Below, piece after piece: positions 2,193 to 63,001 of a stretch of 64,000 bases of DNA. How positions within the stretch are numbered: the stretch's first letter is position 1; each line of letters opens with the position of its first letter. The translations under genes and the position numbers were made by a program. The notes under the pieces are model-generated. The model worked only from the letters and a program-made list of their open reading frames with translations. It was not told the origin of the DNA and made no database searches. This DNA is from a virus, in the IMG/VR virus record IMGVR_UViG_3300029060_000343; one strand, given 5' to 3'.

Positions 2193-2210
2193 TTATTATT
2201 ATGAAAGATT
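2193..2210 (-). promoter_or_regulatory. conserved intergenic motif copy (plus-strand ATTATTATGAAAGATT; coding-strand consensus TTTYCTKTCATAWTAAT)
   Basis: One of ≥34 copies located 30-60 nt upstream of minus-strand start codons; candidate element-specific promoter. Confidence 0.5.
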
Positions 2211-2329
2211 CGGAAAAATTTGTGTGCAGAAAATACAGCAAAACCCCCACATTGCTGTGGGGGTACCAGAGAAGAAAATGTGTTTTATGAAAGAGGTTTC
2301 CCATCTTCAATATTATTATGGCAGAAATG

Positions 2330-2566
2330 TTATAAAAATGCCGAACTGATAATCAGTTTCTCAGGAAGAATTTTCATATGCTCCGTTTCTGCCCATGGAA
2401 TTTTATAAACTTTTCCGTTTTCGCATGATCTAAAACCTGTTGTTTTGGCACTATCTCCTCTTTTTGTTCCATATATAGTTATTAACTCGGTTCCTTTCGG
2501 AATGAGATGTCCGTTAATGTCTGTGATGGGTTTTGTTGTCACGACATGCGAGTTGATCCAACCCAT
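2330..2566 (-). CDS. hypothetical protein (78 aa)
   Basis: ORF track; preceded by hairpin terminator, conserved motif and AAAGGAGAATACTTT-ATG. Confidence 0.45.
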   Translation of the reverse strand: MGWINSHVVTTKPITDINGHLIPKGTELITIYGTKRGDSAKTTGFRSCENGKVYKIPWAETEHMKILPEKLIISSAFL

Positions 2567-2649
2567 AAAGTATTCTCCTTTCTATCTTTTGTTTGATACC
2601 ATTATTATGACATAAAAACATGGAAGAAAGATTTTTCTGCACAGAAAAA

Positions 2650-2672
2650 CCGTGACAAACGCCACGGTTTTT
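2650..2672 (-). terminator. intrinsic terminator (CCGTGGCGTTTGTCACGG + U-run) after the macro-domain gene
   Basis: GC hairpin plus T/A run; readable on both strands. Confidence 0.6.
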
Positions 2673-2754
2673 CATCTTTAAGAGAAGGATACCACGTCCA
2701 TAGGTAACGTAACAAACGAATTTGTTTGAGTTAATCAATCTAAAATCCTGGTTC

Positions 2755-3213
2755 CTACCATAAATTTCGTTTTTCTTCCCATTTATAACATACGGTAATA
2801 TTCAGATCATCAATATCTCCGAATAATTCCTGTATAAAACTCCTTACGACTTCCCAGTCCATCCGATCCAGACCACAGCCAATTTTAGGCATTGCGATAG
2901 ATTTTATACCGTATGTAATGACAATATTGCGAAGCTCTTTTAATGCCGTCCGCATGGTCTTTTCCGAAGGCTTCATATAATATTTCGCCTTCGTCACCAG
3001 ATTTAGAACACGTGAGGTTACAATGCAGTATCCTTTACCGTTCCATACATTTGACCTGTAGTTTTTCTGCAGTTCCTGCTTCGTATTAAATCTTTTATTG
3101 AATTCAACAGCGATACCTTTTCCGCAAGCAAAATCAGCGGATATACACTGTACAAACCATACGTCAGGATCATCGATATCAAATAAATCCGCGTATTTTT
3201 CTATATATTGCAA
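2755..3213 (-). CDS. macro domain protein (ADP-ribose binding/hydrolase-like)
   Basis: Macro-domain-like glycine-rich segment (ISADFACGKGIAVEF); TTG start with GGGGGAG RBS; downstream hairpin terminator at 2650-2672. Confidence 0.6.
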   Translation of the reverse strand: MQYIEKYADLFDIDDPDVWFVQCISADFACGKGIAVEFNKRFNTKQELQKNYRSNVWNGKGYCIVTSRVLNLVTKAKYYMKPSEKTMRTALKELRNIVITYGIKSIAMPKIGCGLDRMDWEVVRSFIQELFGDIDDLNITVCYKWEEKRNLW

Positions 3214-3342
3214 GTGCTCTCCCCCTTTCTGTTTATAAAATTAATATGTCAGAATTTCTGTGCAGGAATTTGCTCACATCATTATTTTATGCTATAGTAA
3301 CTATAGAAAACAGAATACAGCAAAAATAAAAAAGGATAAGAA

Positions 3343-4031: not shown

Positions 4032-4447
4032 ATGATTTGCCCTCCTTGTGGCCATAACTGTTCCCCCGCCGGAAACAGTAAGAAATGTTTCGCTCGGCGG
4101 GAGCATTATAGATTTTTGGGAGGACGCTGCTTCCGTAACCGGATGAAGCAGCGAATCAGTGCCCATCCGGTCGGACTGTATTTTTAGAAAAAGGTTGGTT
4201 TTATATAATCTCTGGATAAACCGGAGTAACAAAAGTAAAATCTATAAGATCAACCGGGATTTTTATCTTAACCCCGGGAAAAGTTTTTCTCCATCTTTCT
4301 TTGATATTACTATTATGATAGAAAACTATGTGAAAAGTTTGCAGAATTCTTATATTGGTATGGACGAAAAGAAAGAGACGAAGTTTTCTCCGCCTCTTAA
4401 TACCTTACAGCTCTGCACAATCATTTCATTTTTTATGAAAAACGCTC

Positions 4448-6065: not shown

Positions 6066-6665
6066 TCAGGTATCATCTCTGTCCATCAAGCCCTTCGGAA
6101 GTATCCAGCCTTCAGGAGTAACAACATATTCTTTCTCTGAAGAATTTTCCGGAGCATCAATATCAGCCTTCTTTTTGCCGTAAATTTTTTCAACGGCATT
6201 GACGTAATCTGTCTGGATGTCGAAATACATCTTCATCCACAGATTCCCGTCTTCTCTGTAAGCGTTCACCTGCTTCGCCAACTGACGAATCTGCTCTTCC
6301 AGCTTTTCCTTGTCTTCTCCTTTCAGCTCTTCCTGCCCAATGATATAACCACCGTTTTTGCGAATAGACGGTAACACATCATGGGTCACCCAGTTTTTAA
6401 ATGCTTTTGCCTCTGCTTTACGGGATGAGAAGATCATCTCGTAGAGACCAGGTTCATTTACGAACTGATATTTGCGGCGGCCGTTTCCGATGTCAGCAAA
6501 TACTTCTTCTTTATCGCAATTATCCAGCATACGTAGAGCATTTTTTGCCTGCATGCCAAGGATTTCTGCTACGTCTTTTGCTAGAAACCATACGGATCCA
6601 TCATCGCGGATTGCTGCGCTCAGTTTGCCAATGTTTTTCTTACTGAAAATCTCAAATTTGTTCAT
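6066..6665 (-). CDS. BRO-N domain protein (phage antirepressor-like)
   Basis: N-terminal IRDDGSVWFLAKDVAEILG matches the Bro-N signature; conserved motif plus GGAGGAAACACA-ATG upstream. Confidence 0.65.
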   Translation of the reverse strand: MNKFEIFSKKNIGKLSAAIRDDGSVWFLAKDVAEILGMQAKNALRMLDNCDKEEVFADIGNGRRKYQFVNEPGLYEMIFSSRKAEAKAFKNWVTHDVLPSIRKNGGYIIGQEELKGEDKEKLEEQIRQLAKQVNAYREDGNLWMKMYFDIQTDYVNAVEKIYGKKKADIDAPENSSEKEYVVTPEGWILPKGLMDRDDT

Positions 6666-6698: not shown

Positions 6699-6715
6699 AT
6701 TAATATGAAGGAAAA
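6699..6715 (-). promoter_or_regulatory. conserved intergenic motif copy (ATTAATATGAAGGAAAA)
   Basis: 35 nt upstream of the BRO-N gene start. Confidence 0.5.
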
Positions 6716-6949: not shown

Positions 6950-7822
6950 TCAATGTTCGTTATCTTGAATAATAGCAGGCTTAATGCGTTCTGTTGTCGC
7001 TTGCTGCTCTCGTTTGGTTTCCTCGACAACGGCATTAATATGCTTCATAAAATCAGAAGGTTCATCAATTTCTATATTATTTTCGTTTTCGGAGCATTCC
7101 TTTTCAAAATCTTTTATCGCTGCGTTGATTTCGCGTATTTCGAATTCATTGATTGAATTTTTACTGACTTCTTCGCGAAGTCGATCAATTAATTCGTGAG
7201 CTTTTTGTCTGATGTTTTGGTCATCGTTATATGCTAAAATATCAATGTGATAATTTCCAAACATTTCTCTTTTTGTTTTTAAGTCAAATTTTTTAAATTT
7301 GGCACGCAAGCTAACATCTTTGCTATTATCCTTAACCAAGACATCAAGATCTTTTTCTCGGCAATAACTTACAGCTTCTTTTCTTATCTCTTCGTATCGG
7401 CTATGAACAAGAAGATCAAGGTCATTGTCCCGACTATGACATAAAACAGCCCTTTGCACATCCTCATCATCGGAATTGACAAGTATATCCAAGTCTTTAT
7501 CACGACCATATCTGGCAACAGCTATATCGACAAATGGATCTTCATCATGTACCAAAATATCCAAATCTTTATCCCGTCCATATTCAGCGACAGTTATTCT
7601 AATCATCGGTTCTTCATCATGTACCAAAATATCCAAATCTTTATCCCGTCCATGTTTAGCAATGGCTATTTTAACGTAGGGTTCTTCACTATGTATCAGG
7701 ATATCCAAATCTTTATCATTTCCTAATTCTGCAAGGCTTCGTTTTATGTGCAAAGGAGCATTTAATAATTTCAAATCTTCTTTGACCTGTGGCGTATTTT
7801 CTTGCGTGTTTTCTGTTTTCAT
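6950..7822 (-). CDS. LRV (leucine-rich repeat variant)-repeat protein
   Basis: At least 8 tandem ~24-aa repeats (DKDLDILVHDEDPxVRxAVAxYGR); start set at the ATG after the GGGAGG RBS; produces a ~72-bp DNA tandem repeat. Confidence 0.6.
   Translation of the reverse strand: MKTENTQENTPQVKEDLKLLNAPLHIKRSLAELGNDKDLDILIHSEEPYVKIAIAKHGRDKDLDILVHDEEPMIRITVAEYGRDKDLDILVHDEDPFVDIAVARYGRDKDLDILVNSDDEDVQRAVLCHSRDNDLDLLVHSRYEEIRKEAVSYCREKDLDVLVKDNSKDVSLRAKFKKFDLKTKREMFGNYHIDILAYNDDQNIRQKAHELIDRLREEVSKNSINEFEIREINAAIKDFEKECSENENNIEIDEPSDFMKHINAVVEETKREQQATTERIKPAIIQDNEH
7440..7760. repeat. ~72-bp tandem DNA repeats (≥4 units) encoding LRV protein repeats
   Basis: ATCATGTACCAAAATATCCAAATCTTTATCCCGTCCAT... 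repeated. Confidence 0.6.
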
Positions 7823-7933
7823 AATTTTTCCTCCCAATAAAGTATTTTATGGTTAATTTATTCTGACATTATTATGAAGGAAAATAGACTTATAAAAATA
7901 TAAAAAAGAGTCACATTCCTGCGGTTCTAAATA

Positions 7934-9340
7934 TCAATGTTCTTCTCCCGGATAATTTTTGGATTTAGTTTGTTTATCCAACAAAGCTTGTTGTTCTCTT
8001 TTAGTTTTTTCTACTACAGAATCAATATGATCCAGGAAACTTTCGTAGTCCCCATTTTCTCTTGTTTGCAAGCCAATTTTTATTTTTTCCATTTGATTGT
8101 AATCAAATTTTGGGTTTGCATAAATAGACGCATCAATGCCATCCTCTAAACCCCATCTTATTTGAAGCATTTGCTCAGGATTAAAATCGGCGTTAGCATA
8201 CATAGAAACATCAATACCTGCCTCCAGGCCATATCTTATCTGCTGCATTTGTTCAGCATTAAATTCAGGTTTGGCATAGATAGAAATGTCAACATCTGTC
8301 TCTAAACCCTGTCTAATTTCCGTCATTTGTGTCCACTCGAATTCAGGCTTGGCATAGATGGAAACATCGAGTTTGGATTCCAGACCTTCTCTTATCTGTT
8401 CCATTTGGGTGCTATCAAATCTTGGATTTGCATAAATAGATACATCAATTTCATTTTCTAGTCCATATCTAATTTGTCGCATTTGACGGGCATTAAATTC
8501 AGGTTTGACATAAATAGAAACATCAATACCTGCCTCCAAACCTTGTCTTATTTCATGCATTTGTTCCCCATTAAATTCCGGACTTGCATAAACGGAAATA
8601 TCAACATCGTTTTTCAGTCCCAATCTTATTTCCTGCATTTGATTGGCGTTAAATAATTCTTTATTAATTTTGTAAGTAAGTAGTTTTTTAACTATCGCAT
8701 TTTCTCGAATAGTTTCATCTTGATCATTAATTAAAATATCCAAGTCTTTATTGCGACCTTTGTGTATTACACCTAACTTAACGCCTCTATCTGAATCATG
8801 TACAAGGATGTCAAGATCCTTGTCCCGGCCACACGCAGCGACCCACGTCCTAACGCCAGCATCCGAATCATGAACCAGAATATCCAAATCCTTACTGCGC
8901 CCTTTGGCGGCAACTACCATTCTAATATCTCTATCCGGATCATGGACAAGTATATCCAGATCTTCTTCTTTTCCTTTTTCGATTAAGGCGATTTTTTCAT
9001 TGATCGACATATCATTGCAATTCATAGTATTTTCTTGTTTTTTGATTTTTAAATTTTCTCTTATTTGCTTCATTTGAATCCAATCAAATTCGGGGTTAGC
9101 ATAAATAGAAACGTCGATGTTTTCTTTAAGCCCTTCTCTTATTTCTTCCATTTGTCCTTCATTGAATACCAGGTTGGCGTAGGCAGAGACATCGAGACCA
9201 TCTTCCAGGCCCCATCTTATTTGACGCATTTGTCCCCAACTAAATTCAGGTTTGGCATAAATGGAGATATCGATACCAGACTCCAATCCACTTCTTATCT
9301 CGTTTCTTTGAGCAATATTAAACTTTTCACGGTAAGTCAT
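7934..9340 (-). CDS. repeat protein (about ten ~34-aa repeats plus central LRV repeats)
   Basis: Repeats of the form SIYANPEFxxxQMxQIRxGLExxxDVS; central DLDILVHDxD LRV-like units. Confidence 0.55.
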   Translation of the reverse strand: MTYREKFNIAQRNEIRSGLESGIDISIYAKPEFSWGQMRQIRWGLEDGLDVSAYANLVFNEGQMEEIREGLKENIDVSIYANPEFDWIQMKQIRENLKIKKQENTMNCNDMSINEKIALIEKGKEEDLDILVHDPDRDIRMVVAAKGRSKDLDILVHDSDAGVRTWVAACGRDKDLDILVHDSDRGVKLGVIHKGRNKDLDILINDQDETIRENAIVKKLLTYKINKELFNANQMQEIRLGLKNDVDISVYASPEFNGEQMHEIRQGLEAGIDVSIYVKPEFNARQMRQIRYGLENEIDVSIYANPRFDSTQMEQIREGLESKLDVSIYAKPEFEWTQMTEIRQGLETDVDISIYAKPEFNAEQMQQIRYGLEAGIDVSMYANADFNPEQMLQIRWGLEDGIDASIYANPKFDYNQMEKIKIGLQTRENGDYESFLDHIDSVVEKTKREQQALLDKQTKSKNYPGEEH

Positions 9341-9454
9341 ATCTTAACTCCTTATAAAGAATATTTCCGGTTCAATTTGTGTCGATATTATTATGATAGA
9401 AAATCGTCCTACAAAAAAAGTAAAAAGAGCCACATTTCTGTGACTCTTTCAAAA

Positions 9455-10266: not shown

Positions 10267-11400
10267 TTATGCTGCTGTCAGTGTCCGCAGGCCTTCCTGC
10301 AGGATGTTGATGGCGGCATTCCTGTCCCTGCCCATCGTCAGACCACAGTCACATTTCATGGTGCGGACCCTGAGATCCTTCATTTCCGGATGCAGGGAAC
10401 CGCAGCAGTGACAGATCTGGGATGACGGAAACCATTTATCGACCTTGATGAGATACTTGTTTCTGTCGGCAAGCTTGTATTCGAGCATGGACAGAAACAT
10501 GCCATATCCGTTATCCAGGGTAGCTTTACCGTTCCCGAAACCTTTGTTTGCCATGGCACGCATATTTAAGGATTCCACGCATACGACATCATACCGGTTG
10601 GCTATCCCGGTAGAGATCTTATGCAGGTTATCCAGACGCTGATTGGCAATGTGTTTGTGGATCCTGTTGATCTTACGGAGCTGCTTTATGTAATTACTGG
10701 ATTTCACTTCATTCTTACGGGAACCCTGCATGCGTGACAGCCGGCGCTGCGCCCTGGCAAGCTTCCTGCTGCTCTCGCGGTAGTATTTATGATTCGTGCC
10801 AACGTTGCCGTTGTTGTCCACGTACAGCCCATCAGAGGCATAATCCAGTCCGATGGCGTTGGTTTTATCGGCAGTATAGGTATTTACAGGAGTTTCGAAT
10901 TCGAACAGGACGGAGACATAATACTTCCCGTCGGATTCCTGGGATACCGTGGCAGATTTGATGTTCCAGTCGTCTCCGGGCATACGATGGATGACAGCTT
11001 TTACTTTACCGGCCTTAGGCAGCCTGATAAAGCCGCCGTCCACGATAGCAACAGTACCCTTCTGGTTGTTGGTGGTATAAGACCTGCGGCTTCGCTTTGC
11101 GGACTTGAACTTAGGAAAACCAGTATTCTTCTTGTGCGACTTACTGAAACAGTTACGGAAGGCAGCCTGCAAATCCAACTGCTTGTTAGCAAGCGCAAGG
11201 CTGTCCACTTCTTTAAGATATGGATGATCCTTCTTGTATTTGGCAGGAGTGATAGCAGGGAATTTACCGGTAGTTTCATAGCCCTCAATCTTATCGGACA
11301 GCATGAGATTATAAACCTTCCGGCAGCATCCAAAGGTTTTTGCAAACAGGGCGCGTTGTTCAGTCGTAGGGTAGATCCGGTATCTGTAAGCATGGTTCAT
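10267..11400 (-). CDS. tnpB: TnpB (IS200/IS605 family OrfB, RuvC-like RNA-guided nuclease)
   Basis: Conserved OrfB N-terminus (YRYRIYPT), RuvC-I (GLDYA), RuvC-II (VESL), CHCCG...CDCG zinc finger, and RuvC-III (RDRNAAINI). Confidence 0.85.
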   Translation of the reverse strand: MNHAYRYRIYPTTEQRALFAKTFGCCRKVYNLMLSDKIEGYETTGKFPAITPAKYKKDHPYLKEVDSLALANKQLDLQAAFRNCFSKSHKKNTGFPKFKSAKRSRRSYTTNNQKGTVAIVDGGFIRLPKAGKVKAVIHRMPGDDWNIKSATVSQESDGKYYVSVLFEFETPVNTYTADKTNAIGLDYASDGLYVDNNGNVGTNHKYYRESSRKLARAQRRLSRMQGSRKNEVKSSNYIKQLRKINRIHKHIANQRLDNLHKISTGIANRYDVVCVESLNMRAMANKGFGNGKATLDNGYGMFLSMLEYKLADRNKYLIKVDKWFPSSQICHCCGSLHPEMKDLRVRTMKCDCGLTMGRDRNAAINILQEGLRTLTAA

Positions 11401-11804
11401 CGAAAACTGTCACCTTTCTGTAAAATATCTTTCTTACTTATTATGAAAGATTATATTTGTTATATTAGGTTTTTGGCTCGTAATCAAAACCAAGGACGAG
11501 CCGCGTTGATCGCAATTTATCCTACCACTTATAGAAGGCGGGGATTTCTTGCTCGCGGCTTGTTAAATCCGTTCTGTACGGTCCGATTATCAATCTGTCC
11601 AAAAGTGATCCGAACGCCAGTATATCCTGTGGGGATAATCGCAAAAGACTGACCGAGAACACAAATAGCTAATCCCAGGATAAATTCATGTAAAATCCTT
11701 TTTGTTTTTGATGCTTTACTCTATTTTTCTTCAGTTAAAAAAATATTATGAAAGAAAATCATGATATAAAAACAGAAAACTCCGGAAATATTCCGGAGTC
11801 AATG

Positions 11805-12152
11805 TTACCTTTCTGAAATTGCCGCCGCATACGCCAAATAACATGCAATATCGCCAAGATCTTTTCTGCCAAATTCTTTTTCCAAAGGCATTTTATTATA
11901 CCTAAGAAAAATATTCAGACAATCCATAAACCGATCATGTGACGATGTACGATATTTGTCGTTTTCCATCTTCCACGTATTATCATGCGTTGCCCATTCC
12001 ATACGGTATTTGGTATACTTGATTGCTGCACTAAGTAAATCCGTTGCTAACTCCCTATTATCCTCATCTTCGCCAGATAGAGCATTCGGAAGCATGGTGC
12101 TTACGAGTATAGCGATATCTTCACATTCGGAATTGGTAAAAAAACTATTCAT
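11805..12152 (-). CDS. hypothetical protein (start revised to MNSFFTN...)
   Basis: GGAAGGAGGAA RBS before the internal ATG; terminator and motif upstream at 11742-11799. Confidence 0.5.
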   Translation of the reverse strand: MNSFFTNSECEDIAILVSTMLPNALSGEDEDNRELATDLLSAAIKYTKYRMEWATHDNTWKMENDKYRTSSHDRFMDCLNIFLRYNKMPLEKEFGRKDLGDIACYLAYAAAISER

Positions 12153-12492
12153 AGAAAAGTTCCTCCTTCCGGTCATCTAGCTCATGAAATAGCTCTTTTA
12201 CGTTTGTATACTCTTCTATTATCTGATCCATATCTGCTTCAGACAGATTAACTGCAGAATAACTTTCGATATGTTTATCGTTAAAGAGCGGGTCGTAAAC
12301 CGGTTTAAATATAAAATGAAATTCATTTTTGCATTTTGTTGGAAGTATAGAAACATGTTTTTCGGTAAATTCTTCTCCGGTATCAAAAACGAGCCGGACA
12401 TCATATCCATAGCCCTGTAATATGCGGACAATATGCTTTCCGCCATCAGGATTAGATGTTTTTTCTTCCTTTATAACTTTAAGCTGATACAT
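12145..12492 (-). CDS. hypothetical protein (115 aa)
   Basis: ORF track; motif at 12523-12538 upstream. Confidence 0.5.
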   Translation of the reverse strand: MYQLKVIKEEKTSNPDGGKHIVRILQGYGYDVRLVFDTGEEFTEKHVSILPTKCKNEFHFIFKPVYDPLFNDKHIESYSAVNLSEADMDQIIEEYTNVKELFHELDDRKEELFYE

Positions 12493-12554: not shown

Positions 12555-13424
12555 TCAGCGCTCAATATCTTTTGCTGAACAGCTATTAGGATGTTCATAA
12601 TCGCCATTTAGCACATCCTGCAGAAGAGAAGATCTTTCCGGTACTTTTTCTTCTATTTGTACTGTCCCACCGTGATCGCTCGATATTTCCATGACTACAT
12701 TTTTGAAAATTTCCTTTCCTATATACCCGTTTTCGCTTTTATCAAAATAACACGATGCACCGCCAAGAGAAATATTACCGACCGTTTCAATGTCGTATTC
12801 TCCATATTTTGTAGGATTTTCGAGGCTGATCTGACAACCATCGCGAAAAGTGACTATGCCGGTTTTGCGTTCGTTCATGAAAATCTGTAAATCTTCCGAT
12901 ATATCTGCGGAAGCGTATTCATTGAATTTTTCTGTCATTTCGTTTTTATTCAGCTCTGGATAAGATTTTTCCTTTGCTTTTTCTACAACCTGGTCCAGGA
13001 GATGCTCTGATTTCTCGAGTGTTCCTTTTTCGAACAATTCGTTTGTCAGGTCTGCACAAAATTTTGCAACACGGTAGTGATTGTCCTGGCTGAATTTTAG
13101 TAATCCATGTTCCTGTGTCATCTGGGGTTCAAAATCAAATATTTTTTGCTGTCCATTTCGTCTTGCAATATCATTGACATTTTTGCAGGCAGCGCAGGCC
13201 TTGTCATGAACTTTATTTCTTTCGTCGTTTGCCTTTTCGATTCTTGCTATATATTCCGACTGATCTATTCTTTCGGAAATAAGGAATGCGCGATTTCTTT
13301 CAATAGCAAGCTCCTGATTAGCGACTGTATTGACATATTTGGTTAATGTCTGTGCGTATTCAACGATTTCATCTGCACTCCCGGGAACTTTTTCCATAAG
13401 TGCGCTAAGTTTTTCTATATACAT
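12555..13424 (-). CDS. hypothetical protein (289 aa)
   Basis: ORF track; motif at 13446-13461 upstream. Confidence 0.55.
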   Translation of the reverse strand: MYIEKLSALMEKVPGSADEIVEYAQTLTKYVNTVANQELAIERNRAFLISERIDQSEYIARIEKANDERNKVHDKACAACKNVNDIARRNGQQKIFDFEPQMTQEHGLLKFSQDNHYRVAKFCADLTNELFEKGTLEKSEHLLDQVVEKAKEKSYPELNKNEMTEKFNEYASADISEDLQIFMNERKTGIVTFRDGCQISLENPTKYGEYDIETVGNISLGGASCYFDKSENGYIGKEIFKNVVMEISSDHGGTVQIEEKVPERSSLLQDVLNGDYEHPNSCSAKDIER

Positions 13425-13445: not shown

Positions 13446-13461
13446 ATTAATATGACAGAAA
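13446..13461 (-). promoter_or_regulatory. conserved intergenic motif copy (ATTAATATGACAGAAA)
   Basis: Upstream of 12555..13424. Confidence 0.5.
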
Positions 13462-13477
13462 GAACGGGTATAAAATC

Positions 13478-13930
13478 CTAAAGCAGTATCTTCTCTAACA
13501 GTTTCTTCCGCTCATACTCCTCTCGTACTGCGTTCAGGTCAGTTGGTTCCTTTATGGTAAAACGAGCTCTTAGGAATCTTTCCATATCTTTTTCGATATT
13601 CTCTATAGTTCCTTTTGTGGTTTTTCCAGGTCCTGCTGTAAGATAAAAAGTCCATTTTCCGAGAGCGTTATTGCCACGTCTCCCGTTTTCATCCGGAGCG
13701 AGGTCACAGCGAATTTCGATTCCGGACAAAGATATCTCCTTACATTCCGGTATCCAACGGTAATCTGTTATTACTCTCATCGCACCGCAAAATAACTGAA
13801 ACAACACGTTTCGGACATCATTCCAGTGTTCTGCACAGTCTATTTCTATCGTCTGCAGAAACCATTCGAACTCAAAATCCATATCAAGACGGGATCCGGG
13901 TGCTTCTGCAGCTTTTGTTCCTTCAAACAT
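13478..13930 (-). CDS. hypothetical protein (150 aa)
   Basis: ORF track; motif at 13958-13973 and hairpin 13990-14015 upstream. Confidence 0.5.
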   Translation of the reverse strand: MFEGTKAAEAPGSRLDMDFEFEWFLQTIEIDCAEHWNDVRNVLFQLFCGAMRVITDYRWIPECKEISLSGIEIRCDLAPDENGRRGNNALGKWTFYLTAGPGKTTKGTIENIEKDMERFLRARFTIKEPTDLNAVREEYERKKLLEKILL

Positions 13931-14261
13931 AATTTTCTCCTATTCTGTTATATATAACTATTATGAAAGATATTTTTTTAAATAACAAAATTTCCCGGAG
14001 CGGGGACTCCGGGAAACGCATCAAAGATAAAAGGGGAATCAGATCTGTTTTCATCTGATAATACTATTATAACAGCTTTGAAATTTATTGCAAATTTCTG
14101 CACAGAAATTATTACAAAGAAAAATAAACAAAAATAACAATACAAAACAGTATGTATTTAACAAAACAACTGTTCCATATTGTATTAATTTTAAAAATAT
14201 GATATTTTCGTTATGGCAAAAGTAGATAGATGTTTTTGTTTACGAAAGAGAGGCGAAAATC

Positions 14262-14375: not shown

Positions 14376-14388
14376 TTTTTCTTCTAAA

Positions 14389-50757: not shown

Positions 50758-51009
50758 CTATGCCGCACATATTCCGACATACCCACAACCATGTATAACT
50801 TTATATCTGTCATCTTTCTCAAAACAGAAATCCAGACTTTCTGCGGGACATTCTTCCGGATCAATCCATCCGGTCCGGTTTGCTCGCATGATCGTCCCAT
50901 CTTCGCATCGCCAGATCACATCTCCTTTTTCGAAAGTTGTATCCGTGCTGCTTTTCGTCACCTTATAAACAACATTTTTCTCCATTACCGTTTCTCCTCT
51001 GCGGTCCAC
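50758..51009 (-). CDS. hypothetical protein (83 aa)
   Basis: ORF track. Confidence 0.45.
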   Translation of the reverse strand: MDRRGETVMEKNVVYKVTKSSTDTTFEKGDVIWRCEDGTIMRANRTGWIDPEECPAESLDFCFEKDDRYKVIHGCGYVGICAA

Positions 51010-51738: not shown

Positions 51739-52037
51739 GGATCATTGGCGCTTACATGAAGCAGGTCTTCTGCGATCTTATGCAGGCATTCAGTATCGAC
51801 TTTTGCTACTACGGCGGCGACACCATTGATTCTAGGTCTGCCGCGGTATACGCACCCACCGGGCCAGCCGTCTTCGAATTCACTTTGGGGAACCGTTCTA
51901 TATTCAATTTTATTTTCTTCCATAAAAGGAATCAGTTTATTTAAAATTACTCCCGGAACAACGGTAACTTCTTCTTTTTCAGAATATACAATTTGTGGAT
52001 TATACATTTCTGCCTCCTTATTCATTTGATGAATCAA
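51711..52037 (-). CDS. hypothetical protein (108 aa), paralog of 51433..51738
   Basis: Tandem duplicate. Confidence 0.5.
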   Translation of the reverse strand: MIHQMNKEAEMYNPQIVYSEKEEVTVVPGVILNKLIPFMEENKIEYRTVPQSEFEDGWPGGCVYRGRPRINGVAAVVAKVDTECLHKIAEDLLHVSANDPCFGGRKVM

Positions 52038-52063
52038 TTATAATACAAATATTAACGACAGTC

Positions 52064-52080
52064 AAAATTCTGCACAGAAA
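52064..52080 (-). promoter_or_regulatory. TTTCTGCACAGAAA inverted-repeat box (TTCTG-CA-CAGAA), one of ~8-10 intergenic copies
   Basis: Other copies at 2633-2650, 3252-3270 (variant), 14092-14110, 49771-49790, 51391-51410, 60490-60505 and 31108-31127 (variant). Confidence 0.4.
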
Positions 52081-53959: not shown

Positions 53960-54039
53960 GATTATTAATTCCTCCTCTTTTCTTTGATTTCTCTTAATAT
54001 GAAAGAAAACCGCGGATAAAATCCACGGTTTCTCATAAA

Positions 54040-55092
54040 CTAATTAATAACTTTATGGACAACAGCTGCCTGACATTCCGTTCCCGATACATATACCGGT
54101 GGAATCCAGTGCAGGATCAGTTTTCTTTCACCGTTCCTCGATCCGGTCCAGTAATGATGCCAGTGTGCCCTCCTTGTGTGTGCCGGTAAAGAACGTTTTA
54201 CACAAATGTTCAGTTCGGATGTTTGCCCTTTACAATTATCTGAAGATTTCTTTTGTTTCTTCTGCGAACGAATTTCTGATCCGTACCGATAACCACATTC
54301 CCATTGACGGATTTCAGAAAACCTATTTTTGATACGTCCACTGGGATGATATGTATTTTTCGTAACTGAAGATTCCTGTATCTCTGCATTGTCTGCGCAC
54401 AGATATAATAAAGCATTCAACATATAGAAACAGAATTCCGTCCAATCCACGTTTCGGTCTGATTCGTCGCATGAAAAATCATTTTTGTCGAAAATGAAAA
54501 TTCCATCTTCATTATCGTTTGGAACCAGTGCGGCTTTGCCAAACATAACCCTGCCATCTTCCTTTACGCGTTCCGTGTACAAAAGATATCCATTTTCTTT
54601 CCTGATTATATTTATGAATGCTCCGTGGAAATTTTTCCGGAAAATGCCATCCTCAGAAAATTCCAGATAAAATGTCTGATACGGCAGCCGGTCCAGTATT
54701 CTTACAGGTAATTTGATTTCTTCCGAATCTGCCAAAGCAAGCTCAAGTTCCGAATCAAACTTATATACCTGTTTATTTGCGGCCCATTTATTCGGCATTA
54801 GATACGAAGAAAATAATTCTGCGGCTAACGCTCTGTCTTCTTCTGGATCTTCTGGTATCTCGCCATTTCCAGTCATCATTTTGTACATTTGAGAACGGCC
54901 TGATAATAAAATATCATTGATGTATTTGAATTTTCCGTTATAAGACGGATTCATGAAATCAGTGTCGTACCAGATAAACAAAAGGACATCGTCGATATTT
55001 AAAAGTGTCTGTTTGATCGCCCTGGTCCATTTATTATTATAAGGATGACTGTTTAAATCCATTATTTTTGCAAAATATAATGGTGTATACAT
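54040..55092 (-). CDS. hypothetical protein (350 aa)
   Basis: ORF track. Confidence 0.5.
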   Translation of the reverse strand: MYTPLYFAKIMDLNSHPYNNKWTRAIKQTLLNIDDVLLFIWYDTDFMNPSYNGKFKYINDILLSGRSQMYKMMTGNGEIPEDPEEDRALAAELFSSYLMPNKWAANKQVYKFDSELELALADSEEIKLPVRILDRLPYQTFYLEFSEDGIFRKNFHGAFINIIRKENGYLLYTERVKEDGRVMFGKAALVPNDNEDGIFIFDKNDFSCDESDRNVDWTEFCFYMLNALLYLCADNAEIQESSVTKNTYHPSGRIKNRFSEIRQWECGYRYGSEIRSQKKQKKSSDNCKGQTSELNICVKRSLPAHTRRAHWHHYWTGSRNGERKLILHWIPPVYVSGTECQAAVVHKVIN

Positions 55093-55849: not shown

Positions 55850-55963
55850 TTTTTCTTTCCTCCATTTCTCTATTTGATGATATTAATATGAAAGAAAATA
55901 AGATCCCGAGTTTGGAATCCTATACCAGACTTTTCTATGGCTTTTCCGCAACTTTTCTTCTGA

Positions 55964-56172: not shown

Positions 56173-56607
56173 CTAATCCATTTTTCTCATATAATCCTGA
56201 TTCGGACTCTGATATATTATGACCTGATTTTCGTTTGCGTAGACCATTCCCAGTTCGGTAATTGCACGGCGCTTGATTTCTTCGAGATTTATACTGCTCT
56301 CCAAACGTTCTATTTCCTCGTCATTGCTTCTTTTTATGGTATTTAATTCTTTTTCCAACTGGGATATTTCGCTGATTTTTGCAGTGAGTTCCGCCTGCGA
56401 CTGGATGTAATTTATAAGTACCATGGCGCATAAAAATAAAGCAGCTACAAGAAATAAAACATACCCGATGTTCATATGTTTTGCTTTTTCCCGGTTATGT
56501 CTCGTTTCATTTGATAAAATCCGTGGTTTTGAATTCATTTCGCGAATCAATTCATCAGCGGTTGCTGTGTAAACATATCTCTGCTGTATTCGTCTGTGTT
56601 CTGTCAT
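56173..56607 (-). CDS. DivIC/FtsB/FtsL-like septum-formation-initiator-type protein (TM plus coiled coil)
   Basis: Single TM segment (LFLVAALFLCAMVLI) followed by a leucine-zipper-like coiled coil (ELTAKISEISQLEKELNTIKRSNDEEIERLES); start at the ATG after the AGAGGGAAT RBS. Confidence 0.5.
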   Translation of the reverse strand: MTEHRRIQQRYVYTATADELIREMNSKPRILSNETRHNREKAKHMNIGYVLFLVAALFLCAMVLINYIQSQAELTAKISEISQLEKELNTIKRSNDEEIERLESSINLEEIKRRAITELGMVYANENQVIIYQSPNQDYMRKMD

Positions 56608-56727
56608 ATTCCCTCTGATGTATAAATAATACGTGTTATTTATAATTATTATGACAGAAAAGCAAAAAGAAACTCGCATAATTGCGAGTTCCCTAATTTT
56701 GGTGTCTGTAATTCTCTTATCGTACTA

Positions 56728-57168: not shown

Positions 57169-58221
57169 CTATAATCGCAGCGTTGTTCCTGTTGTTTTCT
57201 CGAACAAATTATAAATATCTCTCTTCTCGAATTTGAATCCGCCGGCTCCCTTATGTCCGCCGCCTCCGAACAGTTTGACAATTTCTGCCACATTGATATC
57301 TTCCTTGTCGCTGCGGATAGAGACCCCGTTTCCGTAATTAACAATGAACAGATCAAGCTGCGGATACGTATCGCGCATGTAATCCAGAACATCGAATATA
57401 TATTTGGAATCATCAATGTAGGCAATATCGTATGTTCTTGTATAGTCATCTTCCATCGGAATATCCAGTGTCCCGAATTTGATCTGATTCTTAATGTTTT
57501 CAACATGCTCTTTTCTTTTTGCTTTCTCTGCTTTGAGCATAATTCTATCGGTATCGGAGCCATAATAAATTGGAGGCAATCCGATTTTTGATAATCTTCT
57601 GCGAACATACAGATTATTCCCATAAGCGGCAAACAGGAGATTTTCATCCTTAAATTTATAGTTTCCTTCAAAACAGGTTTTCCAATCCCTTGTATCGTAA
57701 GCGGAAATCCATAGACATATATTTTCTGTAGTAATACAACTTGCATCAGGAAGAAAATTAATACCACAATAATACATGTAATCTAATATAAGAGAGGTTC
57801 CTGAAGAATGCCCGTTTGAATAATAATTGACCAGGAAAGAATCTTCTAACATATTCCCGAAACTTACGCCCCAGGAATATCTGTTGATATACTGGCTTGT
57901 CAGATGATGGTCCAGCAAAACGAACCGGCTGTTAATATCAGGCAGGCTATCGATATATTCAGCATCCGCCTCATTGCAGGAAATATCGCAGGCAATAACT
58001 TTACCGAAGCTTTCAGCGATAGCCGCATCGGTTAAAGCTTCCTTGACTCGTCCACTCATCACCCCGTTACTAAGATGTACAACCTTAATATTTTTATCCG
58101 GAAACATGCATCTCAAAACGATTTCTGCTCCAGCTCCATCGGCGTCATCATGTGTCAGTAACAAAATGCGGTCGTCTTTATTAACTTTTGCAAGTTTTCC
58201 AAATAATTCGTTTCTAAACAT
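57169..58221 (-). CDS. DHH/DHHA1 family phosphoesterase (NrnA-like)
   Basis: LLTHDDADGAGAEIVL (DHH motif region) and C-terminal GGGHKGAGG (DHHA1 GGGH motif). Confidence 0.6.
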   Translation of the reverse strand: MFRNELFGKLAKVNKDDRILLLTHDDADGAGAEIVLRCMFPDKNIKVVHLSNGVMSGRVKEALTDAAIAESFGKVIACDISCNEADAEYIDSLPDINSRFVLLDHHLTSQYINRYSWGVSFGNMLEDSFLVNYYSNGHSSGTSLILDYMYYCGINFLPDASCITTENICLWISAYDTRDWKTCFEGNYKFKDENLLFAAYGNNLYVRRRLSKIGLPPIYYGSDTDRIMLKAEKAKRKEHVENIKNQIKFGTLDIPMEDDYTRTYDIAYIDDSKYIFDVLDYMRDTYPQLDLFIVNYGNGVSIRSDKEDINVAEIVKLFGGGGHKGAGGFKFEKRDIYNLFEKTTGTTLRL

Positions 58222-58324
58222 AATTTTCTCCTTCTTTCTTTGTTTTTATTAATATGAAAGATTTATGTCCATAAAAGAAAACTTCCAGCCGAAGCCGGAA
58301 GTTATATATTTTATTGTTTCCGGC

Positions 58325-58504: not shown

Positions 58505-58741
58505 TGATTCCTCCTGTTTTAAGGAGCTCCCTGTTGCTCCAATTATCTTTGATAACATTAATATGCAGGAAAATATATTTCTAATTCCAAAGCTATCCGA
58601 AATACTTCAGCACCTTGCAACCCTCTTTTGAAAAACTGATATAAGCGTATCTGCAGAATCCAATGGAAGGAACATTTGCGACATTTTCTATCATATTCTC
58701 GTGCAAATGGCCATGAAAATGGTACACAGGCTGTCTGTTCA

Positions 58742-58975
58742 GTAGATACCATCTGACAGCTCTGCACAGTCTAAAGACTGGCAGGTTCCTGGTATATAGC
58801 AGCATCACTTAACGATTCTTACAACGGATCCGGTTTCTGATTTTTATGGTCAGGAAGCGGATCTTTTTTATGCAAAACAGTGTTTGTTATAGCTGCCGTA
58901 CCTAAATGGAATTTCGCTGCAAACGCTCCGATGAGCGCTTAACGCAGCCGGATCCTGTCGAACCCGTTTGTATGA
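58742..58975 (-). ncRNA. putative omega-RNA scaffold region 3' of the tnpB-like gene
   Basis: By position; an ~85%-identical solo copy of this segment sits at 32826-33012. Confidence 0.25.
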
Positions 58976-60442
58976 TTAACAGTGACATTTATGGTATTCG
59001 TAACTTCGCAATCCGAAGCTAGAAGGATATTTCTTATTCTCTGCAAGGAGCGCGTTCATGCAGGCATCATGTGTTATCAGGAACATGGGGAAGGTGTCGA
59101 TACATTTCTGTCTGTCGGCGGCCGTGCCGGTGTCGTTACTGTTCTTTAGCAGGAACGCCGAATACAGATCTCTCTGTATGTAGTGGCCGCCAACGAAACT
59201 TCCCCGGCAAGAAAGCTTCTTTCGGACGTAGTCATCCGTTACATGGTTGTACTGACTGGCGCGGAAGTTTACGGTATCGATCTTAATTAACTCCCCGCCG
59301 CCGGAAGCGAGCCGGCTTTCCAGAATCTTTAGGAACGCTGCCGGTGCGTGGTTGCCTATGGATTTTCCGAACCGCTTCCTGCTCCGGAACCGGCCATCGG
59401 CTTTCTTCGTGGCAGACTTCGATCTCCGTGCAAGACCATGGAAAAACATCTTTTCCACGTACGCGGTATCTGCCTTCGAGGCAATTTCATTCGCAAGCCG
59501 GTGGTGGCCGGTATTTATCGCATCGGCATGCCGGCGTTCCATGGACTTCTTGCGGAACTGAAGCTTCCTGTAGTGCTTCGAACGAATCCACTTCCTTGCA
59601 CCCTTGCGGACAGTGCCGTCCGGCAGATAATTATCCGGATTCGTGATGCGTCTGCTCCGGTCCATGGCTCTCTGAGTCCGCCTGATTTGCGCAGAATGAT
59701 CTTTTGCATCGGAACTGAGTACCGTCAGTTTACAGGAATCCTTGGTCACGATAGCCGCGGTAGAGATCCCGATATCCAGTCCGGCGGTTCCATGACAGAC
59801 CGGATGCTTTACCGGGGGCTTTCCTTCCAGAACCAGCTGCAAGTAGTAGTGGTATTTCGTACCCACGGGCTTCCTCTGGATACGGCAGTACTTTACACGG
59901 GATTTCAGAGCTTTCCGGTCATAATCCGTCCGGATCTGCGGCTGGATCACCTGCCCGCGCCAATAAAGCCGGCCGTCTTTGAACCGCATGCCGGAAGTAT
60001 TTTTCTTACCTTCCATGCTTTCGAATTCATCGTATTTCCTGAAATGAATACATTTCCCGTTATCAAACAGATACTTCTCCACGGACCGCCATACGGAAGA
60101 AGCGATCTTCTGGGCTACATCAGAGTCAATGGATTTCTTGTATCTGTGCTGCTGTACAGCAACATACGTATGCAGCTGGTATTCACTGAGTCCATAACCT
60201 CGGCGGATGTCAGCAAGCTCCTGATTGATGCGGTTCTTATCAACTTTCGATAGACCAGACTCCTTCCTCGCAGCCAGATGATCTCGATACTCCGGATCCT
60301 GTATTAACTTCCGGAGTTGCTTCCGGCAGTGCCGCACAAGGACGTTGTAGATCTGCTGTCCACACCAGAAAGTATGAGAAAGCCACCGGTCCTGCTCGAG
60401 AGAAGTATTCAGTTTTAATGTCAAACCGAATGATTCTGTCAT
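58976..60442 (-). CDS. tnpB: TnpB-like RuvC-fold protein (IS605/IS1341 family) with degenerate zinc finger
   Basis: RuvC-I (GLDIGIS), RuvC-II region (AYVEKMF) and RuvC-III-like (QRDLYSAFLLKN); the usual CxxC...CxxC module keeps only one Cys. Confidence 0.65.
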   Translation of the reverse strand: MTESFGLTLKLNTSLEQDRWLSHTFWCGQQIYNVLVRHCRKQLRKLIQDPEYRDHLAARKESGLSKVDKNRINQELADIRRGYGLSEYQLHTYVAVQQHRYKKSIDSDVAQKIASSVWRSVEKYLFDNGKCIHFRKYDEFESMEGKKNTSGMRFKDGRLYWRGQVIQPQIRTDYDRKALKSRVKYCRIQRKPVGTKYHYYLQLVLEGKPPVKHPVCHGTAGLDIGISTAAIVTKDSCKLTVLSSDAKDHSAQIRRTQRAMDRSRRITNPDNYLPDGTVRKGARKWIRSKHYRKLQFRKKSMERRHADAINTGHHRLANEIASKADTAYVEKMFFHGLARRSKSATKKADGRFRSRKRFGKSIGNHAPAAFLKILESRLASGGGELIKIDTVNFRASQYNHVTDDYVRKKLSCRGSFVGGHYIQRDLYSAFLLKNSNDTGTAADRQKCIDTFPMFLITHDACMNALLAENKKYPSSFGLRSYEYHKCHC

Positions 60443-60457
60443 AAATACTCCTTATAT

Positions 60458-60475
60458 AGTTATTATGACAGAATT
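60458..60475 (-). promoter_or_regulatory. conserved intergenic motif copy (AGTTATTATGACAGAATT) directly upstream of the tnpB-like gene, followed by a TTTCTGCACAGAAA box
   Basis: Lies inside the inferred IS left end. Confidence 0.45.
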
Positions 60476-60726
60476 TGAGTTCCCTGCAGATTTCTGCACA
60501 GAAAGACGCATTCCTCCTCACGGTCTGAAGACAGGAGGCTTCCTGCTATGGTATTTGTGAATGAGTGTCCGTTATGAATAGCGCACGAAATTGCCCGGTA
60601 CATCCCGGAATCTCCCGTTTACGAACCTCAAAACGCTTTTCTTCCTCGGAAAACATGACTTTTTTCGCTGTATCATTATGCATGATTTTTCTTCTTAACA
60701 ATCTGTCCAAAAACATAATTTCTCTC

Positions 60727-62412
60727 CTATATTATAAATACGCCGACTACTTCATTCAACCGGTCTACGATAGCTTTTACGTCCTTGATCTGCTCATCGA
60801 TTGCTGCGATCTGTCCTGTCATCTCATTAATCGTAGCTGAGGTCTCCTCCGTGGATGCAGCATTCTCTTCGGATATCGCAGATAAGGATTCTGCACTTTC
60901 GATGATAGCATCTTTGCTGGAATTGATCTCTTTCACTTTTGCCGCAATTTCAGTAATCTTATCCGATACGCTGCCGATACTTTCCATAACACGTTCGAAG
61001 TCGCTATGCATATCTTTTAAGACCTGTTCTTCTTTTGCGACTGCTTCACGGATCATTCCGGCAGAAGTTGTGCTTCTTTCGGAAATCGCCAGGATATTTG
61101 CGATGATATTTTTGATCTCTGTTGCGGATCCATTGGATTGTTCTGCGAGATTTTTAATTTCCCCTGCGACAACAGCAAATCCTTTTCCTGCTTCTCCCGC
61201 TCTTGCTGCCTCAATAGATGCATTCAGGGAAAGCAGATTTGTCTGCTCGGCAATGGATGCGATAATCGTGGCTGCTTCGCTGATCTTTTGTACAGCACTA
61301 TTTGTTTCCATGACGCTGTCTGCTACTTCGTCGGAAGCTTTGTTTGTAGCTCCGTTTGCAGATAACAATTCGTCCAGCGTTTTCATGGTTGCATTTGAGA
61401 TTTCACGGATCTGTCCGGAAGCATCCATGGCATTTTCGGACAGAACATTCGCGCTCACGATAGCTTCGCCGACTGCCGCCATCTGCTCATTGATATTCTG
61501 GGCATGATTTGCCAGGTCCATGGCTCCGCTCGAGATCTCTTCGACTGCGGTATTGACACTGACGGCAGCATCATTGCAGACAGCAACCTCATGATTGACG
61601 AGTCCGGTGTCCTGAAGCAGATTTCCCGATGATTCATTTACCCGTTCTATAGTCCGGACCATATTTTGCTTAAGATCTGTTGCTGCACCGATCAGCTGAT
61701 TGGTTTCCTTCAGAATAGAATGAATCCGGACATCTGCGGTAAAATTTCCTTTTGAAAATTCTGTGATCACGTATACTATTTTTGCGAGCGGTTTGCAGAT
61801 CGCTTTTGCTGAGATCATTGCTATAACAATCCAGAACAACAGAGATGCAGCATAAACGATAATCGACTGTTTTGTGATATTATTTATGCCGCTTAATACA
61901 TCGGATTCATTTGCCGTTATGACCGCTATGTATTTCTCATTGATTCCTACATAATAAGCGGCATATTTCAGGGTGCCGTTAAAATTATATTCGATAATAT
62001 CCGGTTCCGGATGTTTGCCCGCGTTGATCTGACTGATCAATGTTTTTACCGCTTCGTTTTCTACGGATTTTCCTACTTTTTCTTTTGTCGGGTGGTACAG
62101 CATTTCAGCCGTATAACCGTCAACAATATAAAGATAGGATGAATCGACATCAGTAACGGTATAATTATTTGCTTTTGCAGATAAAAAATTATAAGAAAGA
62201 GCGTCGTCATCTCCTTCGAATAAAGCAGAATCCAGTGTGCTGCCGCATTGCTCCACAATAGAAAGCATATAATTTTTAGTCAGGCTTTTTACCTCTTTTG
62301 AAGTTGCCTTCGTGGATGCTGTCGTCACACCTAAAAGTACTGCGACAAGCGGCAGGGCTACTGCGAGCAAAAGAACCCGATACATACTGAAAATGTTCTT
62401 TTTGTGGTCCAT
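60727..62412 (-). CDS. methyl-accepting chemotaxis protein
   Basis: Highly conserved MCP signalling hairpin ([33 protein letters not shown]); N-terminal TM, periplasmic region, second TM and HAMP topology. Confidence 0.85.
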
Positions 62413-62532
62413 AACTTACCTCCATTTAGCTGTTATTTTTTGTATTTGCTCCAGAGTATCCAAAAATTTTTTGAGTTCCGAATCTATTGTTTTTGGCGGA
62501 TCTTTAGGTATATTTTTAATTCCAAGCATACT

Positions 62533-62889
62533 TTACCCTCTTCCACATAAAAGAGCCATATCTCCTTTTATTTCCTGTGTCTGTGCAATAGTCTTTGATA
62601 CTTTTTGGCTATGCTCTTCCACCATGTATAATGACATGCAGAAAAATAACGGAAGAATATCTGTTATCTGCGATCCGGATAATTTCACTGTTATTTCTCC
62701 GGTCGTCCTGTTTTTCGTAGACATAGCCTTCAGCATATTATAAGCAGCCATCAAACTGTCCGCGGAAATGGAGAAATTGCCGGCCTTTGCGATCATTCCG
62801 CTCGACTTTTTTATCGCGTTCAGATATTCTTTGTATTCTGCCTGATTGGAAAAGGTGATGTTCACGATTGGTGAATTAGCGGCGGACAA
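62533..62889 (-). CDS. hypothetical protein (start revised to a TTG after the AAAGGAG RBS)
   Basis: The ORF-track 5' extension covers the conserved motif (62935-62951) and a terminator. Confidence 0.4.
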   Translation of the reverse strand: MSAANSPIVNITFSNQAEYKEYLNAIKKSSGMIAKAGNFSISADSLMAAYNMLKAMSTKNRTTGEITVKLSGSQITDILPLFFCMSLYMVEEHSQKVSKTIAQTQEIKGDMALLCGRG

Positions 62890-63001
62890 TTTTTTTATAT
62901 TCAATTTTTTACTCCTTTTATAATATTTTTCATATTTATTATGAAAGAATTTGGTAAAAAATAAAGAAAAGCGCTGCTTTTGCAACGCCTTTCATAATTA
63001 A

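Follow-up and report, generated by a model that had tools for sequence, protein, structure and literature searches.

The stretch of virus DNA analysed here (IMG/VR record IMGVR_UViG_3300029060_000343; 64,000 nucleotides (nt), hereafter the window) carries between its genes, before about 36 of them, a recurrent motif of 17-25 nt, designated A-type, which is very probably a promoter and which we infer to be the main promoter class of a giant phage of the human gut. On the gene strand its consensus is wwTTCTkTCATAwTAAT, followed by a pyrimidine-purine step, and the full logo reads ww-T-T-C-T-(G/T)-T-C-A-T-A-(A/T)-T-A-A-T-a-n-Y-R, followed by an A-rich leader. An earlier, sequence-only reading of the window had proposed that the motif itself is the promoter, and this core of the proposal was supported by its intergenic location, its strand bias, a fixed small spacing from the ribosome-binding site, a purine conserved where transcription is predicted to start (+1), its retention in relatives, its replacement by another version in a sister lineage and the separate occurrence of canonical TTGACA-17-TATAAT promoters in this genome.

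With a GC content of 35-43%, the window is rich in AT. Its open reading frames (ORFs) are almost all carried by the minus strand, each behind an AGGAGG-type ribosome-binding site. It is identical to part of the human-gut metagenome contig ENA ERZ918708 k127_138811 (102.6 kb), and an extended stretch of 82,858 nt (~83 kb) was obtained by joining it to both flanks. The genome measures at least 253 kb, as contig ULYR01077957.1 (253,625 bp) has a 100% identical marker gene, and the contigs of the sister lineage span 205-474 kb.

The degenerate 17-mer described earlier gave 8 exact matches, on one strand only, versus 0 expected, and 55 matches with up to three mismatches, versus 13.4 ± 3.8 expected. 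With an iterated weight matrix built from the window sites, gene-sense versus antisense hits numbered 38 versus 13 at a threshold of at least 12 bits, 36 versus 3 at 16 bits and 35 versus 1 at 18 bits or more, confirming the proposed orientation with the minus-strand genes; equal occurrence on both strands was not seen. The distribution of scores was bimodal, and the A-type sites are thus a distinct class and not an effect of base composition. The extended stretch held 44 strong sites, essentially all intergenic, so the motif is not restricted to the window, where, as stated earlier, nearly all sites lie between called genes and the few overlaps involve only dubious short ORFs.

All 34 sites of the earlier list matched strong matrix hits, most of them at offsets of 0-3 nt (the one given at 35927 is really located at 35917-35933), and two further sites had been missed, 2312-2328 and 43589-43605. 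Positions in the motif were numbered from its first conserved C (position 0), so that CATAWT occupies positions 4-9, and position 16 was taken as +1. The 36 sites of the window are the following ((-), minus strand; lengths of proteins in amino acids, aa):

2195-2211 (-), A-type (GAATCTTTCATAATAATAATT), 21.9 bits, before the gene of a 163-aa protein (1685-2176), predicted start 15 nt before the start codon
2312-2328 (-), A-type, 22.9 bits, absent from the earlier list, in tandem with the 2195 site and 117 nt upstream of it
2601-2617 (-), A-type, 20.7 bits, with a palindrome (2635-2646) 33 nt upstream of motif position 0
3240-3256 (-), A-type, 21.7 bits, before gene 2755-3213
4309-4325 (-), A-type, 21.0 bits, ~270 nt from the next called gene
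6699-6715 (-), A-type, 26.2 bits, before the Bro-N gene 6066-6665
7868-7884 (-), A-type, 25.6 bits, before gene 6950-7822
9387-9403 (-), A-type, 25.9 bits, before the gene of a 468-aa protein (7934-9340)
11437-11453 (-), A-type, 19.2 bits, before tnpB 10267-11400 (TnpB domains)
11742-11758 (-), A-type, 24.7 bits
12523-12539 (-), A-type, 23.2 bits, before gene 12145-12492
13446-13462 (-), A-type, 23.5 bits, before gene 12555-13424
13957-13973 (-), A-type, 21.3 bits, immediately after a terminator, before gene 13478-13930
16903-16919 (-), A-type, 27.2 bits, before the radical-SAM gene 16089-16877
25123-25139 (-), A-type, 25.2 bits, before gene 24791-25090, terminator 18 nt upstream
26410-26426 (-), A-type, 25.3 bits, before the C5 DNA methyltransferase gene 25381-26379 (Pfam DNA_methylase)
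28173-28189 (-), A-type, 26.6 bits, before gene 27661-28140
29079-29095 (-), weaker A-type with T replacing C at position 0, 16.2 bits, before the AcrIC5-like gene 28853-29044 (Pfam AcrIC5)
31077-31093 (-), A-type, 24.5 bits, palindrome 31111-31122 upstream
33785-33801 (-), A-type, 25.5 bits
35917-35933 (-), A-type, 25.3 bits, overlapped by the U-tract of a terminator
36557-36573 (-), A-type, 25.9 bits, before gene 36098-36523
37949-37965 (-), A-type, 23.8 bits, before gene 37083-37916
42839-42855 (-), A-type, 21.5 bits, in tandem with the canonical promoter 42787-42815, before a transfer RNA (tRNA) array
43455-43471 (-), A-type, 28.3 bits, before gene 42954-43424
43589-43605 (-), A-type, 19.7 bits, absent from the earlier list
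46144-46160 (-), A-type, 19.8 bits, before the gene of a 477-aa protein (44682-46115)
48970-48986 (-), A-type, 25.6 bits, before gene 48270-48938
49743-49759 (-), A-type, 25.3 bits, palindrome 49776-49787 upstream
53993-54009 (-), A-type, 20.7 bits, its 5' part being the U-tract of the upstream terminator
55882-55898 (-), A-type, 28.5 bits, before the operon containing the AcrVA2-like gene 54040-55092 (Pfam)
56645-56661 (-), A-type, 27.2 bits, before the gene of a 144-aa protein (~56173-56607)
58248-58264 (-), A-type, 20.6 bits, before the DHH phosphoesterase-like gene 57169-58221
58557-58573 (-), A-type, 21.9 bits, before the gene of a 58-aa protein
60459-60475 (-), A-type, 21.8 bits, before the gene of a TnpB-like 488-aa protein, inside an inserted element with palindrome 60492-60503
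62935-62951 (-), A-type, 21.8 bits, before gene 62533-62904

A purine was present at position 16 in 87% of the window sites and in 97% of 51 non-redundant sites from relatives; the latter were found with the window matrix, so that independence is limited to the positions that it does not cover (from 16 onwards, and -7 or further upstream in the same numbering). At position 15, T or C predominates. With +1 at position 16, CATAWT falls at -12 to -7, with invariant A at -11 and T at -7, and with C, instead of the T canonically required by sigma-A, at -12 in 94-99% of the sites. Further conserved positions are the invariant C of TTCT at -16, T at -15 and AAT at -6 to -4, and position -14, the spot of the TG of extended -10 promoters, is G or T, with G in only ~35% of the sites. 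A TTGACA-like -35 hexamer was absent 16-18 bp upstream, where the information does not exceed 0.7 bit and only a weak T-rich patch is seen; the claim that there is no separate -35 was therefore sustained, no such box being found at 17 bp. On the other hand, the -10 register formerly placed on TAWTAAT is better set on CATAWT, two bases upstream, which puts the conserved purine at +1; this register is preferred on account of that purine and of a palindrome located at the same distance as in canonical promoters (see below). By its geometry the motif resembles promoters of the extended -10 type that lack a -35, although the TG is only partial.

At 27 of the 36 window sites, 13-45 nt (mode 27-31 nt) separate the predicted start from the start codon, and with the exception of one doubtful ORF call this start is never downstream of the ribosome-binding site. 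Genes were called crudely, from our own ORF calls, on which these distances depend, and several seemingly long leaders are an effect of the gene calls, as at 56645, which precedes the pipeline-called gene of 144 aa. Past the motif, the 5' leader is partly conserved as well (ATCAAAG-like). Under a strict rule, 20 of the 44 sites of the extended stretch have a terminator-like hairpin with a T run no more than ~35 nt upstream (at one site, 53 nt), and hence the statement that the motif is usually preceded by such a terminator holds for about half of the sites and not for the rest. At four terminator sites (54005, 55894, 35929 and 37961) the TTTTCT part of the motif doubles as the U-tract, and at one orthologous site compared in nine relatives the hairpin stems vary by compensating changes while the promoter region is invariant.

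Relatives were obtained by scanning public metagenome contigs with a flanking 322-aa marker protein, which yielded 37 loci with 56-100% identity. Those with a marker protein 56-68% identical had, per 20 kb, 9-11 A-type sites in sense and 0-2 in antisense orientation, and the placement of the sites with respect to the genes was conserved. The 88 non-redundant sites across relatives gave the same logo and no evidence of subclasses, the G/T position not covarying with the A/T position (Fisher p = 0.25). On the contrary, the sister lineage (loci L130-L141 and L184) and a third lineage (L182; helicase 65% identical) were nearly without A-type sites (0-1 per 20 kb), and their genes are preceded by a B-type motif, TTTTTKACATAWATAAATAR, that is TTTTT(G/T)ACATA(A/T)ATAAATA(G/A). 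Upstream of the nrdG orthologues, ~70% identical at the DNA level, the A-type motif is found here and the B-type motif in the sister lineage. A T-run, CATA(A/T) with its C at -12, and G/T at -14 are common to both versions; the differences concern -16, -13 and -7 (where the B-type has A and the A-type T), as well as positions downstream. The comparison with related genomes that the sequence-only reading had called for thus showed retention of the A-type motif at considerable divergence and a different version in the sister lineage. One locus, L150 (OOBI01000067.1; marker homologue 84% identical), was set aside as a conjugative element (TraG/VirB4-like ATPase, integrase, NlpC/P60) without the motif.

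One segment of the window, 17909-22795, is 96-99.5% identical to the sister lineage, which is otherwise ~70% identical or unalignable, and holds no A-type site and a single B-type site:

20713-20727 (-), B-type motif TTTTTTACATAAGTA

Being shared nearly identically, this segment of sister-lineage phage DNA indicates that the two lineages exchange DNA, in this case recently, and the exchanged 5 kb imports a foreign promoter version into this genome.

Besides the A-type motif, promoters of canonical type were located at four places:

42787-42815 (-), TTGACA-17-TGtTATAGT, 11 of 12 matches plus TG, before the tRNA array
52037-52079 (-), TTGACT-17-TATAAT (promoter 52037-52065) with palindrome 52068-52079 directly upstream
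14066-14107 (-), TTGCAA-16-TATAAT (promoter 14066-14093) with palindrome 14096-14107 directly upstream
50428-50456 (+), TTGACA-17-TATAGT

Over the whole region canonical matches were not enriched (64 versus 57 expected), and the host-type promoters are therefore a small class. Two plus-strand ORFs (101 and 92 aa, 49969-50755), divergent from the main gene direction and without family match, flank the strong promoter 50428-50456, which could drive only the downstream 92-aa ORF. The gap 13930-14649 (-) comprises 700 nt of AT-rich DNA without ORF or Rfam match; from the promoter 14066-14107 a transcript of ~85 nt would be produced, ending at the hairpin 13985-14015, and is a candidate small RNA.

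A palindrome, TTCTGTGCAGAA (arms TTTCTG/CAGAAA), occurs at about ten intergenic places versus ~3 expected, including the following copies:

60492-60503, palindrome
52068-52079, palindrome
49776-49787, palindrome
31111-31122, palindrome
14096-14107, palindrome
2635-2646, palindrome
L125:1168-1179, palindrome, in the locus that also holds the TnpB-like insertion (see below)
L125:1789-1800, palindrome, in the same locus

Five or six copies lie 32-33 nt upstream of A-type motif position 0, and at canonical promoters three copies precede the -35 hexamer by 2-3 nt; in both promoter types this corresponds to about -49 to -38 from the -10 element. Between palindrome and motif the spacer sequences vary, so it is apparently the distance itself that is maintained, and its equality in both classes lends independent support to aligning CATAWT with TATAAT. 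This equality further suggests a single regulator for the two classes and an identical geometry of the polymerase. The palindrome is likely a candidate site for a dimeric regulator, activator or Aca-like repressor, and its half-site TTCTG resembles the 5' part of the A-type motif.

With regard to transcription-related proteins, a stand-alone 72-aa protein (50985-51203, minus strand) matches the C-terminal domain of the RNA polymerase alpha subunit (27.3 bits, Pfam threshold 23.8 bits). Its gene belongs to a five-gene operon of small proteins behind the palindrome and canonical promoter 52037-52079, and the protein could affect host transcription, either as a decoy or by binding DNA. On the opposite strand only one gene (43630-44598, plus strand) is of appreciable size, and its 322-aa product has three helix-turn-helix units, one of them sigma region-4-like (38.5 bits), and a Mor-like C-terminus, without sigma region 2; it is a candidate regulator for the palindrome or for the A-type motif.

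According to the mechanism proposed here, the A-type motif would act as a contiguous, -35-independent element from about -20 to -4, composed of wwTTCTkT, CATAwT at -12 to -7, and AAT. Transcription would start at the conserved purine, 7 nt past the T at -7, giving leaders of 13-45 nt that would carry the AGGAGG ribosome-binding site. The reader would be a polymerase of the bacterial multisubunit type, namely the host core enzyme directed by a phage specificity factor, which might be a sigma-like protein or a remodeller of sigma-A, rather than unaided sigma-A. This reading by host core enzyme and phage factor is favoured, tentatively, for the sigma-like -10 geometry, the partial TG, the shared position of the palindrome, the presence of host-type promoters and the alpha-C-terminal-domain-like protein. 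Several results weigh against it. Neither a sigma factor, nor a sigma-binding protein, nor a polymerase subunit was recognised with Pfam and PHROGs among ~110 proteins in ~91 kb of the genome of at least 253 kb, and no sigma or polymerase genes were present in the precomputed Pfam matches of ~50 kb of sister genomes; a helicase-based extension by 10 kb more in two sister lineages showed accessory genes only. Of known polymerase-binding families, the ~110 proteins matched none but that of the 72-aa alpha-C-terminal-domain-like protein. The start point and the promoter function are themselves predicted from sequence. Early promoters of virion polymerases, as in AR9 and phiKZ, fit the architecture equally well, and for the anti-defence-like genes behind the motif (AcrIC5-like, AcrVA2-like, methyltransferase, macro domain) immediate expression would be expected, before a phage factor is available. 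Of the earlier proposal of a non-host promoter class, the part that concerns a class other than that of host sigma-A, together with strand, location and conservation, is supported, and the gene of the factor was not encountered in the ~91 kb; the label of middle or late promoters was not confirmed, the accessory and anti-defence-like genes that are served arguing for an early class.

That the motif is instead the early promoter of a phage polymerase, either a virion multisubunit enzyme as in phiKZ and AR9 or a single-subunit one, with no need of the host enzyme, is conceivable and somewhat unlikely. Such an enzyme would agree with the size of the genome (at least 253 kb; sister contigs 205-474 kb), with the unidirectional clusters of small accessory and anti-defence-like genes behind the motif, and with the two promoter versions in two lineages, which resemble polymerase-promoter co-evolution. 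The early promoters of AR9, AAATATATATTAT-(6N)-G, have the same layout as found here; motifs of this sort vary among phages and can be detected by bioinformatics in front of early operons (PMC5312081, PMC7598289). It is opposed by the lack of any recognised subunit in the ~91 kb, by well-placed canonical promoters (e.g. before the tRNA array) and by the common palindrome distance, which suggests a single polymerase geometry; moreover, the partial TG at -15/-14 is typical of recognition that depends on sigma. A broader proposition, that diverged and so far unrecognisable phage factors or polymerases read TTTCTkTCATAwTAAT and TTTTTKACATAWATAAATA in prevalent giant phages of the gut, is considered unlikely.

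It appears improbable that the unmodified host sigma-A reads the motif as a strong extended -10 element kept by selection for very strong early promoters, for which the early promoters of T4 or T5 are the model. CATAAT does match TATAAT at five of six positions, including A at -11 and T at -7, and T at -17 and -15 with G at -14 in ~35% of the sites resemble the TRTG -16 region of Gram-positive bacteria; besides, no undiscovered factor would be needed and anti-defence genes would be expressed immediately. However, C at -12 is conserved in 95-99% of 88 non-redundant A-type sites and likewise in the sister version, whereas T occupies this position in the genome's canonical promoters, the invariant C at -16 and AAT at -6 to -4 are without counterpart in sigma-A recognition, and the differences of the sister version at -16, -13 and -7, with A at the last, are hard to square with one shared host sigma-A. 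Least probable is that the motif is no promoter and acts instead as a signal at the RNA level (processing site or leader element) or as the binding site of a regulator or recombination protein at cassette boundaries. The partly conserved leader, the resemblance of TTCTG to a palindrome half-site, the differences in gene content between close relatives and three breakpoints at 48-84 nt from a motif could be adduced in its favour. Nevertheless, only tRNAs reached the gathering score in an Rfam scan of the window, the element is AT-rich and without conserved pairing, its layout is -10-like with a purine at the expected start, and about half of the sites follow a terminator, so that the downstream gene would need a promoter there. 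The remaining breakpoints between relatives lie 90-1700 nt from any motif, and a role of the A-type motif as a recombination or cassette-shuffling signal was not supported, breakpoints being only sometimes near it.

The gene content is phage-like and largely without known function (~90% of the genes). Recognisable products are Bro-N/anti-repressor, C5 methyltransferase, macro domain, DprA-like, NrdG, dUTPase and guanylate kinase, as well as AcrIC5-like and AcrVA2-like proteins, a flotillin/LemA/TPM set and two TnpB-like proteins; an additional 10 kb on the upstream side, obtained by the metagenome scan, encodes NADAR, DUF5688 and a metalloprotease-like protein. The window is read as part of the accessory, and probably early, region in the genome of an uncultured giant phage that infects a gut Firmicute; the host may belong to the Lachnospiraceae, as weakly indicated by one 2-kb fragment binned with an uncultured genome of that family. 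No relatives were detected by megablast of 20 kb against GenBank phages or by two protein-based scans of a copy of IMG/VR, tblastn of a 1537-aa protein against GenBank phages gave no match, two other window proteins had distant matches only, and the exact motif gave only single chance matches among the IMG/VR matches listed. Thus, GenBank phages and the IMG/VR copy searched contain no cultured or annotated relative of this phage group, which is very common in human-gut metagenomes, as single window proteins are indexed in 250-770 blocks of a public assembly collection.

The tRNA genes preceded by tandem promoters form one array:

38015-42348 (-), tRNA array of 35 genes covering most amino acids, with tandem A-type and canonical promoters upstream

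An RNaseH-like ORF (38892-39413) is located within it. The AcrIC5-like (28853-29044) and AcrVA2-like (54040-55092) genes, both on the minus strand, occur in the same genome, and diverged relatives carry a full-length Cas8c/Csd1 gene (260 bits; L176:4332-6203) a few kb from the marker gene. The 468-aa protein (7934-9340, minus strand) has internal repeats of ~250 nt, and these show 66-79% DNA identity to a gene of the sister lineage.

As reported before, A-type sites also precede both tnpB-like genes (site 11437-11453 for gene 10267-11400, and site 60459-60475 for gene 58976-60442). The second of these genes is part of a 1.8-kb insertion (window 58976-60503; L125:12835-14638), absent from the 99.6%-identical locus L123, relative to which it replaces 400 nt of a metallophosphatase gene. 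The insertion brings its own palindrome and A-type promoter, and the mobile element thus uses the promoter version of the phage. When the two TnpB-like proteins were looked up, no further copies came to light in other parts of the genome or in the host, the matches being confined to this locus. A 186-nt repeat is present in two copies (58752-58937 and 32827-33012, minus strand), which are 84% identical with compensating changes in a hairpin; the first is directly 3' of the TnpB-like gene and is a possible guide-RNA or right-end region, and the second is an orphan upstream of the flotillin gene.

The promoter consensus and the predicted start allow transcription units to be annotated among the ~90% of genes without known function, anti-CRISPR-like genes included, and the A-type consensus provides a search key for related genomes. 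The data also lead to a testable prediction, that of a factor preferring C at -12 and needing no -35 box, and the contrast between A-type and B-type motifs at orthologous genes indicates where the specificity determinant should be sought once full genomes are compared. If the two versions do have paired, diverged readers, they would constitute a natural system for the study of promoter-reader co-evolution, possibly with a new kind of promoter-recognition protein. Phage-specific promoters are expected in large phages, and knowledge is hence refined rather than overturned.

Among known systems, the early promoters of phiKZ, AR9 and phiR1-37 are among the closest in being contiguous, highly conserved AT-rich elements centred near -10 and ending at -7, without a -35 and with the start 6-7 nt downstream; in genomes of more than 200 kb they occur in tens of copies, which precede clusters of small early genes that all run in one direction. 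This architecture, an AT-rich element of 13-17 nt, is found here as well, early timing being suggested by gene content. The sequence differs, however, with two invariant C's, no split beta/beta' genes were found by Pfam or PHROGs in ~91 kb of the at least 253 kb, this genome also has canonical host-type promoters and a dUTPase, and its host is a gut Firmicute, probably a member of the Lachnospiraceae, not Bacillus or Pseudomonas.

Modules of a promoter and a stem-loop between small early genes were reportedly described for T4-type phages by Arbiol et al. 2010, and the same order of terminator hairpin, conserved promoter and ribosome-binding site, repeated between small accessory genes in a region of variable gene content among close relatives, is present here at 20 of 44 sites. 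The early promoters of T4 are sigma-70 promoters with a -35 box, which the A-type motif does not have, and a shuffling role was not supported here. The late promoters of T4, TATAAATA, are read via gp55, and the middle and late promoters of the Thermus phage P23-45 are of the extended -10 type; as here, only an element in the -10 region is conserved, with sigma-dependent geometry. Compared with TATAAATA (about -13 to -6), the A-type motif matches at five of eight positions and the B-type CATAWATA at seven of eight. Nevertheless, the genes served by the A-type motif are accessory and anti-defence-like and not structural late genes, and no gp55-, gp33- or gp39-like protein was found in the ~91 kb scanned.

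The -10 elements of sporulation sigma factors read CATA... for sigma-E/K and CATnnTA for sigma-G. These likewise have C at -12 followed by ATA, and CATAWTA fits CATnnTA, which is taken as a lead only; on the other hand, the A-type motif lacks their -35 (GnATR or similar) and no such sigma gene was seen in the sequence scanned. Sigma factors of sporulation type, sigma-F/G-like, are encoded by phages of Firmicutes and of the gut (PMC9429907, PMC10294663). The A-type motif, its sister version, the shared palindrome and the phage group that hosts them appear to be undescribed, and the phenomenon as such is of a kind known in large phages.

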